Part shown: piece after piece, positions 650 to 29,878 of the stretch
Layout of the letters: every line of letters starts with the position of its first letter
Numbering within the stretch: position 1 is the stretch's first letter
Source: Clostridia bacterium
GTDB taxonomy: Bacteria > Bacillota > Clostridia > TANB77 > CAG-508
Assembly (NCBI GenBank): GCA_022793875.1
Contig: JAAWDR010000028.1
Location: forward strand, 23,544-87,543
Length of the DNA stretch: 64,000 nucleotides
Reading direction: 5' to 3'
Notes under the pieces: generated by a model
Seen by the model: only the letters and a program-made list of their open reading frames with translations
What the model was told of the DNA's origin: nothing
Databases searched by the model: none
Program-made: the position numbers and the translations under genes

Positions 650-1082
650 TTCTATTCCTTCTTTTATTAATAATACATTTTTATAATATTCTTCTCTTAA
701 TAAAATATTATAGCACTTATATTATATGATGTCAAAATTCTTGATACCCAACACTTTTTTATTAATGGTTGGATATCCTCCTATAGAGTATATTTTAGTA
801 TGTATCTTGTTCATTATGTTCAAAAAGAATTATTAAAATAAGAAAATAAGCCACTTTCACTCAGGCCAAAATAGATACTTATATTTATTTTACATAAATA
901 TTTTATAAATTTATGTAGAGTCATATTGATTTATGTTAAGTATTATGTTATAATTCTTGTATAAATAATTTAATAGTATTTTATTTCCTTTATCCACTAA
1001 ATTGTGGAGGAAATCTACCTCTTACTTTTTAGTTTCACATATATAACAAAAACATCAAAAAAAGAAAATGGAGGACAACAGT

Positions 1083-26636: not shown

Positions 26637-26667
26637 TGTGACAAAAAAGAACGCCTCTCTTGTCACA
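26637..26667. repeat. palindromic element, family A, overlapping the miaB stop codon
   Basis: tgtgacaaaaaagaacgcctctcttgtcaca. The miaB ...atg tga lies inside the right arm. Confidence 0.7.
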
Positions 26668-28091
26668 TCTTTCCTTTCAAATACCACATATGTTCAGATA
26701 CTATTTTTAAGTCTACCATATTTCCAATCAAACTTTTATCGCCTTCAAAAATAACAACTTTATTGCTATCTGTTCTACCTGTAAGCATCTGTTCATTATT
26801 TTTGCTAGTTCCTTCTACTAATACTTTCTCTATTATTCCAATATATTTTTGATTATTTTCTTCAATTTGACTTTCTACTAATGCCTTTAATTTGTCAAAT
26901 CTTTTATGTTTTATTTCTTCTGGAACTTGATTTTCCATTCTATCCCCTGGTGTTCCTACTCTTCTTGAATATATAAACATATATACTTGTTCAAATTTTA
27001 CTTTTTCTACAACATCTAAAGTGTCTTCAAATTCTTCATCAGTTTCTCCTGGAAATCCTACTATTATATCTGTTGATAATGTTAAATTTGGTATTTTAGT
27101 TTTCATTTTTTTTACTAATTCTAAGTATTGTTCTTTTGTATATTTTCTGTTCATTTCTTTTAGGATTTTTGTGTTTCCTGATTGTAATGGTAAATGTACT
27201 AATTTACACACTTTATCACATTCTGCTATTGCTTCTATTACATCATCTGTAAAATCTTTTGGATGTGGTGATACAAATCTTATTCTTTCTATTCCTTCTA
27301 TTTTGTTTATTTCTTTTAATAATGTTGCAAATGAATCCACTCCTTCATATTGTTCAAATTCTATGCCTTTTTCACGTTCTACTCTTAAATATGAATTTAC
27401 ATTTTGACCGAAGTAATGTAACTTCTTTATATCCTTGTTTTGCTATTTCTTGTACTTCTTCTATTATTGCTCTTGGTTCTCTGCTTCTTTCTCTTCCTCT
27501 AACATATGGAACTATGCAATAACTACAAAAATTATTGCATCCATTCATTATTGTTACTGATGCTTTTATATTACTATCTCTTTTTATTGGTAAGTCTTCA
27601 TATATTTTTCCATCTATATCTAATATATCTTCTTGTCTTTTTCTCTCTTTTATCGCTTTATATAAATCTTCTGGAAGTTTGTGTAATGTATGTGTTCCAA
27701 ATATTATATCTGTATATGGATAACTCATTTTTATTTTATCTGTGATATGTTTTTCTTGCATCATACATCCACCGATTGCAATTATTGTTCCTTTTTGTTC
27801 TTTTAATTTTTTTAGTTCTCCTAATTTTCCAAACAATTTATCTTCTGCATTTTCTCTTACACAACATGTATTAAAAATTGCTAAATCTATTTCATTTTGA
27901 TTTTCTGTTTTTGTGTACCCCATTTCTTCTAACATTCCACATATTTTTTCTGAATCATTTTCATTTAATTGGCATCCCATTGTTAGTATACTATACTTTT
28001 GTTTTTTGTTTTGATTTATTTCTTTTACTTTATTTATGTATTCTTTTTGCTCTTCTATTTCTTTTTTTGTTTCCAATTTATTTTCCTCCAA
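26663..28091 (-). CDS. miaB: tRNA-2-methylthio-N6-dimethylallyladenosine synthase MiaB, split as written by one extra C
   Basis: ORF 27372..28091 (CQLNENDSE, GCNNFCSYCIVPYVRG) and ORF 26663..27340 together make one gene. The gene strand reads gtt aca tta ctt C ggt caa aat gta aat tca tat. Without the C (plus-strand G at 27410) this is EVTLLGQNVNSYLRVEREKGIEFEQYEGVDSFATLL... Confidence 0.9.
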
Positions 28092-28167
28092 TATGCGTAT
28101 ATTCTATAATATTTTGACATATTTTGCAAGATTTTTAAAAATTTTTTAAAAATTTTTAAATTTTATG

Positions 28168-28196
28168 TTGACATTACATAAAATACATGCTATAAT
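28168..28196 (+). promoter_or_regulatory. consensus sigma-A promoter driving the noncoding locus
   Basis: ttgaca-17 nt-tataat, preceded by an A/T-tract region (possible UP element). Confidence 0.7.
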
Positions 28197-28202
28197 AGCA
28201 TT

Positions 28203-28888
28203 ATGTTCACACAAAGAAATACTAAGAATCGAACAAATAACACAAGGAGGTATCTGACGTATGATTCGTGGTAGGCCTGTAGTAACATTTTATAGTACAT
28301 TCATAAAAATCATCTGATCCGGCGGCAGTAGCCAGGAGGTAGCCCCTATGAGGAGACGGTTTCCATCAGGTTTCGTTTAGATACGAAATCTAATTTTAGT
28401 AACTGTTAACATGCACAGGTATATCCTTGGCATAAGTCAGGCGCAGATTGCGCTAGGAGGTATCCCATGAGGGAACGGTATTTTTCAGGTTTCGTTTAAG
28501 TACGAAATCTATCAATGATTGCGAGGCTGGCCAGGATGACCGCCTCTCCCACATTTAGCTGAAATACAGCCCCGCACCCCTATATCTTTGTATGGGCTCG
28601 GCGGAGTTTGTAACAGCACCTCTATATATTTACCTATTTTGTTTGGCGGCACACAGTCAACCAGCACTACGGGTTTAGCTCGCATAAGCGACACCCCGTA
28701 TGTATCGCGAGAAAAGCTTAGCGCCATTACCATGTAATGTAAATCTGGATGGAGCTCGCTTAAGTCGCAGGGAGAATCAAAAATGAACCGGTACAAGTAT
28801 GTTTATTATTCAGGTTTTACCTAGTGTTGAATTTTAATTCAGCCTAAAGTATTTAAGCCGACCCCCAAGATTGGGAGCCGGCTTTTTC
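28203..28888 (+). ncRNA. unclassified large structured RNA locus (about 690 nt) with three AGGAGGTA modules and a GC-rich 3' domain
   Basis: It lies between a consensus promoter and an intrinsic terminator (28856-28888: aagccgaccccc-aaga-ttgggagccggct plus ttttt). GC is locally about 45-50% against a ~28% background. There are many short helices, and the only long ORF (minus strand, 94 aa) has no SD. The strand call rests on the promoter and terminator only. Confidence 0.6.
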
Positions 28889-28900
28889 TATTTTATTTTA

Positions 28901-29440
28901 TTAATTTTCTTTTGTATAATCATTTATTTTTTTAATAAATATTATTCTATCAATAATATCTAATATACCATAAACTATTATTATAGCTCCAACTGCTGTA
29001 ATTACTATATTTTGTTTTACTAAAATTATAATACCAGCTAATACCATTAACATAGTCAATACCAATGAAACAGTCCAATATGGTGATTTAACTTGCTTCC
29101 ATGCTAATACAGTTTGCAAATCCATAACTGCTGTTATAATAATCCACATTCCTAATATTACTCTAAATAATGATAATATTACATTAGATGCAAATAATAT
29201 TATAACACCAAATATTACCATAATCAGTGCCATTGTTAATAAGTAATCTTCTTTAGTTTCTGAAGTATAATATTCTACTAATTTTAAAACACCCATAGCA
29301 ATAAATACCACACCTAATACTATTGAAATTGCTCCTACTGTTTCATTTGGTTTTATTACAAATAATGCTCCAAATAGTACAAATATTATTGAAATAACTA
29401 TGTCTGTCCAGCTTGATCTTCTTAAGAATTTTTCAAACAT
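28901..29440 (-). CDS. HdeD/DUF308-like membrane protein
   Basis: 179 aa, six hydrophobic segments. N-terminal WTDIVISIIFVLFGALFVIKP is typical of DUF308 repeats. Confidence 0.6.
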   Translation of the reverse strand: MFEKFLRRSSWTDIVISIIFVLFGALFVIKPNETVGAISIVLGVVFIAMGVLKLVEYYTSETKEDYLLTMALIMVIFGVIILFASNVILSLFRVILGMWIIITAVMDLQTVLAWKQVKSPYWTVSLVLTMLMVLAGIIILVKQNIVITAVGAIIIVYGILDIIDRIIFIKKINDYTKEN

Positions 29441-29849: not shown

Positions 29850-29878
29850 ATTATACAAGTATTTTTCATTTTTGTCAA
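29850..29878 (-). promoter_or_regulatory. sigma-A-type promoter of rpmF
   Basis: Minus strand reads ttgaca-17 nt-tataat, about 70 nt upstream of the rpmF ATG. Confidence 0.6.

Follow-up and report, generated by a model that had tools for sequence, protein, structure and literature searches.

Leader-peptide attenuators and arrest open reading frames (ORFs), such as trpL, pheL and hisL, ermCL and ErmDL ('MRLR'), TnaC, SpeFL and PepNL, are the described systems that most resemble the element reported here: a probable stand-alone transcript with several very short ORFs, located between miaB and a DUF308 gene in a 64-kb stretch of a Clostridia bacterium genome (GenBank assembly GCA_022793875.1, contig JAAWDR010000028.1). 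We refer to this whole stretch as the window; all coordinates are positions in it, and L-numbers (L011, L095 and so on) denote the related loci or lineages used for comparison. Shared with the described systems are a strong Shine-Dalgarno sequence (SD) followed by an ORF of 6 to 18 codons, a diagnostic slow codon (CGG here), conservation that falls mainly on the final residues ahead of the pause or stop site, and an ORF end within a hairpin, with the ribosome position controlling RNA folding (here predicted). Conservation next to the stop combined with a variable N-terminus is expected of nascent-peptide and leader-peptide elements, not of folded or exported peptides. Arrest may also take place at the end of such an ORF, as the 14-amino-acid (aa) PepNL peptide arrests the ribosome at the termination stage (PMC11890864). 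Unlike the leader-peptide attenuators, the present locus has no structural gene downstream in cis, places three to four ORFs in tandem on a stand-alone terminated transcript, and combines poor U-tracts with the lack of an identified antiterminator pairing.

Two further classes of RNA are of value for comparison. Dual-function RNAs (S. aureus RNAIII/hld, B. subtilis SR1/SR1P, S. meliloti rnTrpL/peTrpL) resemble the locus as independent, strongly expressed (here predicted) RNAs of several hundred nucleotides (nt) that combine hairpins with very small ORFs, and the low-GC Firmicute-type genome fits as well; for rnTrpL/peTrpL, both the attenuator RNA and the leader peptide are reported to be able to act in trans. 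The differences are that no target or seed region was identified here, that the body of the RNA is unconserved even among sister species, and that several ORFs are present instead of one. With the large RNAs OLE, ROOL and GOLLD the locus has its size class in common, as well as the way it stands out from an AT-rich genome as an intergenic island of high GC, whereas it lacks a covariance-model match, a conserved body and exceptional folding, and its distribution is very narrow. In an AT-rich genome, structured RNAs are classically nominated by a long intergenic island of high GC with a perfect promoter and a terminator; here the same signature appears to point to 6-18-codon genes in tandem, an array that is reported by no gene caller. 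If translated, these would constitute an undescribed family of bacterial mini-cistrons, characterized by an SGF-X-stop end (Ser-Gly-Phe and one further residue before the stop), an obligatory rare CGG, a stop codon in a hairpin loop and a stand-alone transcript. In that case, sensing of the leader-peptide type would also occur in RNAs without a downstream gene to control.

The GC-rich stretch between miaB and DUF308 very likely gives rise to a real, strongly promoted plus-strand transcript of about 685 nt, as judged from its sequence signals (Table 1). An initial annotation, made from the letters of the window, had described the region as a noncoding transcript unit with a perfect TTGACA-17-TATAAT promoter, a GC hairpin plus T-run at its end and a GC content far above the background. 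This outline holds: the unit lies between a miaB fragment (27372-28091, minus strand) and the DUF308 gene (28901-29440, minus strand), the promoter agrees with the consensus at all 12 positions and has a TG extension in addition, the terminator is found where it was placed, and the GC content is 0.40-0.51 over 28250-28800 against 0.276 for the window, which makes this region the sole real GC island in the 64 kb. Promoter and terminator are both conserved in position in five other lineages, consistent with an independent plus-strand transcription unit that has its own strong start and end. Every homologous unit closes with its own, different terminator hairpin. The terminator of the window is absent from a simple terminator scan because of mismatches inside the hairpin, and it may serve both strands since only 12 nt separate it from the DUF308 stop codon. 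No tRNA or transfer-messenger RNA was found with ARAGORN.

Perfect TTGACA-N17-TATAAT promoters occur three times in the window (0.10 expected). The other two are located on the minus strand, at 707-735 (leading to a protein gene with its start at 649 and its end beyond the window) and at 29850-29878 (upstream of the ribosomal protein gene rpmF, encoding L32). As one of them stands upstream of rpmF, this class probably marks genuinely strong promoters in the window. The rpmF and DUF308 genes would make one operon, ending at the shared terminator 28855-28889. For the unit itself the predicted transcript start is near 28203, at a conserved ATGTTCA. The ATG of this motif (28203-28205) coincides with the predicted start and is conserved in four lineages, so that leaderless translation is conceivable; the reading frame starting there is not kept among lineages: it has 23 codons in the window and 4 in L098, and in L095 it is fused to the first small ORF, sORF0.

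Table 1. Coordinates of the features in and near the transcription unit (bp, base pairs; sORF, small ORF; z, score relative to shuffled sequences).
Feature	Position	Strand	Remarks
Sigma-70-type promoter TTGACA-17-TGnTATAAT, TG-extended -10	28168-28196	+	12/12 consensus match; same place in L011, L095, L098, L101, L110
5' leader with SD AGGAGG (28245-28250)	28203-28260	+	Most conserved stretch of the unit
sORF0, MIRGRPVVTFYSTFIKII-stop, 18 codons	28261-28317	+	SD-preceded; N-terminal M-[IK]-(T)-R-G-x-P conserved
SD AGGAGG (28334-28339) and micro-ORF 1 (sORF1), MRRRFPSGFV-stop (28348-28380), with CGG	28334-28380	+	
9-bp hairpin AGGTTTCGT / ACGAAATCT, stop TAG in hexaloop, 5' arm formed by the G-F-V codons	28368-28391	+	-9.6 kcal/mol, z -3.75
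SD AGGAGG (28455-28460) and micro-ORF 2 (sORF2), MRERYFSGFV-stop (28467-28499), with CGG	28440-28499	+	GC hairpin GCGCA-GAT-TGCGC directly 5' of SD
Second copy of the 9-bp hairpin, stop TAA in loop	28487-28510	+	-9.6 kcal/mol, z -3.83
GC-rich spacer, GC about 0.49, with most helices and both boxes of the initial annotation	28512-28782	+	Species-specific; fold z -1.1
SD-like GGGAG (28770-28774) and micro-ORF 3 (sORF3), MNRYKYVYYSGFT-stop (28783-28824), with CGG	28770-28824	+	
Intrinsic terminator, GC hairpin and UUUUU	28855-28889	+	-17.3 kcal/mol, z -4.1
+1 frameshift site CUU-CGG-U in the divergent miaB (26663-28091, minus strand), outside the transcript	27407-27413	-	Conserved in relatives

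The description of the unit as noncoding and without a credible protein ORF is not supported, given that the plus strand carries four SD-preceded micro-ORFs (28261-28317, 28348-28380, 28467-28499 and 28783-28824) that are conserved in relatives. The last three, for which the predicted formyl forms are fMet-RRRFPSGFV, fMet-RERYFSGFV and fMet-NRYKYVYYSGFT, end in SGF-X, and modules 1 and 2 of the window form a tandem duplication (a direct repeat with 81% identity). Counterparts are present in L095 (MRRNSYPSGFL and MRRYFSGFT) and L098 (the minimal version MASGFV and MLRWKYSSGFT), adding up to seven SGF-X-stop micro-ORFs of 6-13 codons in three lineages; L101 and L011 have none. In L095 and L098, too, a final micro-ORF ending in SGFT-stop (MRRYFSGFT and MLRWKYSSGFT, respectively) precedes the terminator. 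The length of the seven SGF micro-ORFs varies by whole codons only: the ATG is always in frame, 2-9 codons upstream of SGF, and is itself preceded by an SD at a distance of 6-10 nt (except for a spacing of 4 nt in L098a). In the Ser-Gly-Phe codons the six first and second positions are invariant, the three third positions vary synonymously (TCA/TCG, GGT/GGA, TTC/TTT), the codon that follows is Val, Thr or Leu, and an in-frame stop always comes next. On this pattern of substitutions, the SGF micro-ORFs carry the signature of translated sequence and not of RNA helices.

The motif is also unusual by its count. In the window TCAGGTTTYNNNTAR occurs three times, all within the unit (0.10 expected), and of the 11 short ATG-ORF entries ending in SGF-X that roughly 1 Mb of related DNA contains, 8 fall in units (these 8 represent the seven distinct micro-ORFs, one being counted from two start codons). 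Exactly one CGG is found in 6 of the 7 SGF micro-ORFs, and this codon accounts for 6 of their 11 Arg codons against 2.8% in the long ORFs of the window (nominal P of about 2e-7, the ORFs being paralogous and not independent). With regard to their stop codons, UAG (read by RF1 only) is used in 5 of 7, including 28378-28380 and 28822-28824 of the window, and in 8 of the 41 long ORFs in the window. To our knowledge SGF-X is not a described arrest motif. The MRRRFP of sORF1 may resemble the core of ErmDL, MRLRFP. When the literature was searched for the peptide strings, nothing came up except tachykinin-related peptides of arthropods (APSGFLGMRamide), which we treat as coincidence. The 94-aa ORF on the minus strand had been dismissed before and we agree: it has no Pfam match and is not conserved. 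An antisense protein was rejected likewise; the 116-aa ORF predicted by a gene caller on L101 is not similar to this ORF.

Upstream of the SGF modules the unit contains a leader and sORF0. The leader differs from that of L011 by one base in about 50 nt; the hairpin predicted in it is not better than shuffles (z +0.7). Orthologues of sORF0 are MIRGRPVVVVAYSSFMI (L095), MIRGNPIAILTYKFFKI (L098), MKTRGHPAFSNHSMIAKF (L101) and MIRGKP-stop (L011); the Arg of the conserved N-terminus is always encoded by the rare codon CGT, and synonymous changes are seen (GGT/GGA, AGG/AGA and CCT/CCC). Taken together, our best reading of the sequence comparison is that the selected content consists of sORF0 (18 codons, MIRGxP) and three ORFs of 10-13 codons that are conserved in CGG and in SGF-(Val/Thr/Leu)-stop. 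When compared with the toxins of type I toxin-antitoxin systems, sORF0 is short, only partly hydrophobic and cut to 6 codons in L011, and the promoter-like sites on the minus strand near the unit are only weak (9/12).

The ends of the internal micro-ORFs coincide with hairpins. Besides the two copies in the window, in which the stop codon is located in the loop, module 1 of L095 has kept a stop-in-loop hairpin with a 12-bp stem (-14.4 kcal/mol, z -4.8). Compared with the window hairpins, the L095 arms show one G-C pair turned into C-G and one G-C / G-U pair swapped; these differences are compensatory, and the pairing is maintained. A ribosome that terminates at such a stop would have to melt the hairpin. 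The remaining modules sit in different hairpins. Many SDs have a GC hairpin immediately on their 5' side, such as GCGCA-GAT-TGCGC at 28441-28453. An alternative (antiterminator) pairing for the stop-in-loop hairpins was not identified.

To determine the occurrence of the unit, relatives were collected by a one-genome-per-species scan with the N-terminal half of MiaB, yielding 80 related uncultured gut Clostridia (MiaB identity 74-93%); contigs fetched through MiaB homologues added L095 (93%), L098/L113 (90%), L101/L102 (88%) and L110/L111 (87%). Among the 80 species genomes only L011 (MiaB 93%) matches the RNA, and only over the first 120 nt or so. With a hidden Markov model (HMM) built from promoter and leader, the unit is detected in just six lineages and in each case lies divergent from miaB. 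In a multiple alignment the promoter, the leader, the SD and the start of the first small ORF are conserved and nothing can be aligned past about 150 nt; homology between lineages is thus confined to the promoter and the first 120-150 nt of the transcript. The span from promoter to terminator ranges from about 300 nt (L011) through 400-500 nt (L095, L098, L101 and L110) to about 720 nt (window). In L015, L016, L018, L083 and L107 the order DUF308-miaB is kept with an AT-rich spacer of 160-340 nt that has no GC island. Ten contigs with an identical DUF308 protein belong to the same species and are uninformative, being 99.9-100% identical over the region; the two single-nucleotide polymorphisms within the unit (28320 and 28646) are both in spacers, and a third is just beyond the terminator.

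Neither the module HMM nor the leader HMM picks up any additional copy, intact or decayed, in the roughly 1 Mb of related loci or within the long spacer, and blastn of the RNA against phage and plasmid collections yields no match. Pattern scans of viral contigs (leader, repeat hairpin and flexible leader pattern) give 0 matches, and the tandem SGF-module pattern gives 12 chance matches there, none with an SD or ATG. The flexible leader pattern has 4 chance matches in GC-rich contigs of a metagenome scan, which did not return the species of the window itself. The unit is restricted to a small clade of closely related uncultured gut Clostridia.

Since L011, L101 and L110 keep only the 5' part, the conserved module appears to comprise promoter, leader and sORF0, with a downstream part that turns over quickly. 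In L011 the 6-codon sORF0 is followed by about 110 nt of unrelated GC-rich RNA. In L101 (2066-2218) and L110 (about 930-1070, minus strand of the loci) promoter, leader and sORF0 are kept and a conserved ORF of 45-50 codons replaces the SGF ORFs (MKTSINTIFSKKNILSLSQAQTAQQKSNVNEIQIAGSGHGDIDIEHRLLI in L101 and a shorter variant in L110; pattern ...LSQAQTAQQK..NEIxIAG(S/N)G..DIxHRLLI). Read by eye, the ...LNEIxIAG/(S/N)G... stretch of this ORF resembles a double-glycine leader. The 50-aa ORF of L101 has no Pfam or NCBIfam match and one homologue among 5.8 billion proteins.

Given these observations, we propose a stand-alone, strongly promoted tandem micro-ORF transcript that acts as a translation-sensing RNA, a proposal that the sequence data make, in our estimation, slightly better than an even bet. 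Ribosomes would load each mini-cistron, would have to decode a hungry CGG near its start, would make the SGF-X nascent end and would terminate at the stop, which in the internal modules lies in the loop of the hairpin at the 3' end of the ORF. Progress or pausing of the ribosome might then decide whether this hairpin forms, and hairpin formation would set read-through into the distal RNA, its processing or its stability, together with the peptide yield. This function is favoured by the stop-adjacent conservation, the free N-terminal length, the kept slow codon and the ORF end in a hairpin. As in a leader-peptide attenuator, SD-preceded short ORFs with slow codons are present (four micro-ORFs with SD and ATG, with CGG in 6 of the 7 SGF ORFs).

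A number of observations nonetheless weigh against a translation-sensing RNA. There is no plus-strand gene after the terminator, hence no downstream gene to regulate, so that only the RNA itself or the peptides could serve as the output. The hairpins after the ORFs have weak or no U-tracts and their register differs among the modules. The unit looks dispensable or replaceable, considering the truncation in L011 and the 45-50-aa ORF found instead in L101 and L110. The statistics are inflated by shared ancestry, as the SGF motif is carried by only three lineages and seven related micro-ORFs. Moreover, the minus strand folds better than the plus strand (z -4.2 for the minus strand and -2.1 for the whole plus-strand transcript, 20 shuffles each), so that folding energy cannot pick the strand. 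Finally, the bodies and spacers are consistently GC-rich in every lineage (0.39-0.52 against 0.27) in spite of several-fold length differences and the lack of any sequence similarity; in the window, too, the composition of the spacers 28381-28466 and 28500-28782 is conserved and their sequence is not.

The main rival is that the products are free bioactive peptides: fMet-RRRFPSGFV, its relatives and the more hydrophobic sORF0 peptide would serve as short cationic-aromatic signals, antimicrobials or ligands, with hairpins that stabilise or separate the mini-cistrons. We consider this unlikely, even though the coding signature supports it as well as it does the translation-sensing RNA and several copies of similar peptides are placed on one strongly promoted RNA. 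The basic N-terminus and hydrophobic tail of sORF0 also point in this direction (short hydrophobic pheromone precursors have the same build), and the ORF in the slot of L101 and L110, with its stretch resembling a double-glycine leader, would fit variable peptide cargo. However, that resemblance was seen by eye only, in an ORF that is without Pfam or NCBIfam match and has a single homologue in the 5.8 billion proteins, and in the SGF peptides only the 3-4 C-terminal residues are conserved, the length is free (6-13 aa), and signal or leader sequences are absent. No transporter, maturase, receptor or Rgg/RRNPP-type regulator is encoded within about 6 kb on either side, and the kept rare CGG and the stop-in-loop hairpins are superfluous to a peptide model. 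A pheromone, bacteriocin or RiPP (ribosomally synthesized and post-translationally modified peptide) locus in the strict sense was rejected, as the peptides are leaderless with 6-13 aa and matching neighbour genes are missing. Less likely again are a trans-acting small RNA (sRNA) and a decaying insertion. The former, a dual-function RNA like RNAIII/hld or SR1/SR1P whose GC- or C-rich segments pair with target mRNAs (for instance at SD regions) and whose small ORFs are secondary, agrees with the length, the strong promoter and C-runs that are unusual at 27% GC (CCCCT at 28343, CTCTCCC at 28546, CCCCGCACCCC at 28571 and CACCCCG at 28693); peptide-coding regulatory RNAs are a precedent, as are attenuator RNAs reported to act in trans, such as rnTrpL/peTrpL. 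It appears improbable to us given that the C-rich segments are not conserved in sister lineages, are internally paired in the minimum free energy fold, and show a complementarity to the neighbouring miaB mRNA that is no better than chance. Trans pairing with the miaB mRNA was accordingly rejected, with duplex energies no better than shuffles and no shared words. By the same measure improbable is that the unit is an evolutionary leftover, a young transcribed insertion in a variable intergenic hotspot with micro-ORFs that are decaying relics. It might be argued that the presence in few close relatives only, the fast turnover, the loss of most of the unit in L011, a large spacer without sign of selection and an intergenic region next to miaB that takes up unrelated insertions (among them the long palindromic elements of L013, L022 and L095) are all what a leftover predicts. 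Decay is difficult to reconcile, though, with an ATG, SD, SGF codons and stop that are kept in seven copies amid complete divergence of the neighbouring bases, with substitutions in the SGF codons that are synonymous only, with GC-rich rare codons and spacers that persist although mutation is strongly biased toward AT in this genome of 27% GC, and with a perfect promoter in all six lineages.

A large structured noncoding RNA, in the size class of OLE, ROOL and GOLLD or resembling an ORF-less intron, with its function in the fold of the GC-rich body, had been suggested by the initial annotation and is essentially excluded. The size of about 690 nt, the sole GC island in an AT-rich 64-kb window, the strong promoter and terminator and the fold of the whole transcript (z -2.1) would suit it. 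OLE, ROOL, GOLLD, HEARO and the group I and II introns are all Rfam families, whereas no Rfam 15 family reaches its gathering score across the window, in line with the earlier failure to recognise one, and at E ≤ 10 the region 28050-28950 gives only noise, around the terminator. Nor does any Rfam family match inside the units of the five related lineages. The short helices and the two similar boxes (28677-28688 and 28753-28764) that had been listed are present in the sequence. Most of these lie in the 271-nt core 28512-28782, a segment with a fold no more stable than that of shuffled sequence (z -1.1; 26 shuffles out of 200 are equally or more stable), without similarity to the spacers of L095, L098, L011 and L101 (z about 0) and without a conserved ORF on either strand. 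The long-range pairings that had been suggested as well belong to a stretch that is present in this species alone. The body is missing in 79 of the 80 related species and wholly different in all five lineages that share the 5' end, and the phage and plasmid collections and the viral and metagenome pattern scans contain no match. As nothing can be aligned past about 150 nt and the bodies are unrelated, a 690-nt RNA with a conserved fold is excluded; the conserved, covarying multi-helix architecture of a large ornate RNA of any kind is likewise lacking, with homology ending at about 120-150 nt. An ORF-less group I or II intron was rejected as well: no intron model matches at E ≤ 10, the unit is intergenic, and the spacer of relatives is an uninterrupted 160-340 nt. 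The best reading is that the GC-rich material between the micro-ORFs is a fast-evolving spacer of local hairpins and not an ornate tertiary fold.

The divergent neighbour miaB is split by a frameshift. On its minus strand the window reads ...ACA UUA CUU CGG UCA AAA UGU..., and the 0 frame stops 13 codons past the site. Skipping the C of CGG restores GQNVNSYLRVEREK... as in unshifted relatives (...EVTLL-GQNVNSY...), the +1 frame continuing with GQNVNSYLRVE...NSFATLL. Of 100 loci that were compared, several of them contigs of one and the same lineage, 24 have the site CT[TA]-CGG-[AT]CA; L012, L013, L021, L023, L095, L098, L099, L101, L103, L107, L108 and L110 are among the carriers. In the MiaB tree, lineages with and without the shift are intermingled, L011 being one of the unshifted. 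Over 447 columns the reconstituted proteins share 81-94% identity (82-92% when only shifted lineages are compared). The +1 frame has its first start codon 72-85 codons downstream in most of the shifted lineages, yet the residues just after the site are conserved, and they would therefore have to be translated by shifting. Based on the sequences, the split gene looks like a case of conserved, putative programmed +1 frameshifting at a rare Arg codon and not like random decay: a conserved shift site, a slow 0-frame codon and protein conservation in both frames are seen together. A rarer use of CGG in the frameshift-bearing genomes was ruled out.

We know of few bacterial chromosomal programmed +1 frameshifts beyond prfB. 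Programmed +1 sites with a slow codon include CUU-UGA-C of prfB and CUU-AGG-C of yeast Ty1, and the miaB site CU[U/A]-CGG-[A/U] is built alike: a Leu codon comes first, a rare Arg codon second, and reading in the +1 frame gives the Gly codon GGN. In the mitochondria of glass sponges, shifting takes place at a rare CGG_(A) that arises from a C or T inserted before GGA (PMC5009743). The putative miaB site differs from the known +1 sites in being bacterial, chromosomal and part of a tRNA-modification gene and in showing no stimulatory SD-like element. A literature search turned up no report of miaB frameshifting. If real, the conserved CUU-CGG-N shift in the miaB of many gut Clostridia species would be one more programmed +1 frameshift on a bacterial chromosome, for which feedback control is directly testable because the miaB product itself maintains the reading frame.

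It is tempting to connect both observations in one CGG-based circuit, in which the micro-ORF RNA senses or titrates tRNA-Arg(CCG) and translation capacity and sets or reports the frameshift efficiency. In such a circuit miaB would need the +1 shift at CUU-CGG-N to yield the full-length enzyme, and three mini-cistrons would each force decoding of CGG, the remainder being largely Phe, Tyr and Ser codons that would be read by MiaB-modified tRNAs. The unit adjoins miaB in all six lineages, the rare CGG is common to both, and L011, the sole unit-bearing lineage in which miaB has reverted to unshifted, has also lost the CGG micro-ORFs. On the other hand, L101 and L110 are shifted yet have no CGG micro-ORFs, seven frameshift-bearing lineages have no unit, and the enrichment of U-starting (MiaB-dependent) codons in the micro-ORFs is not significant once SGF is excluded (P=0.08). 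A necessary connection between miaB and the unit is disfavoured by L101, L110 and the seven shifted lineages that lack the unit, and we regard the circuit as very doubtful; if true, it would represent a new kind of codon-specific regulatory RNA.

The genes around the unit encode a sortase, surface proteins, L32, DUF308, MiaB, HD and MutS. The spacer upstream of miaB is also a hotspot of insertions in relatives. L013 and L022 have long near-perfect inverted repeats there, with arms of about 80-130 nt, and L095 (1350-1500) has an element of about 125 nt, bounded by GTTACTATTCACAGC / GCTGTGAATAGTAAC, between the two divergent promoters. These insertions in L013, L022 and L095 look like elements of the MITE (miniature inverted-repeat transposable element) type.

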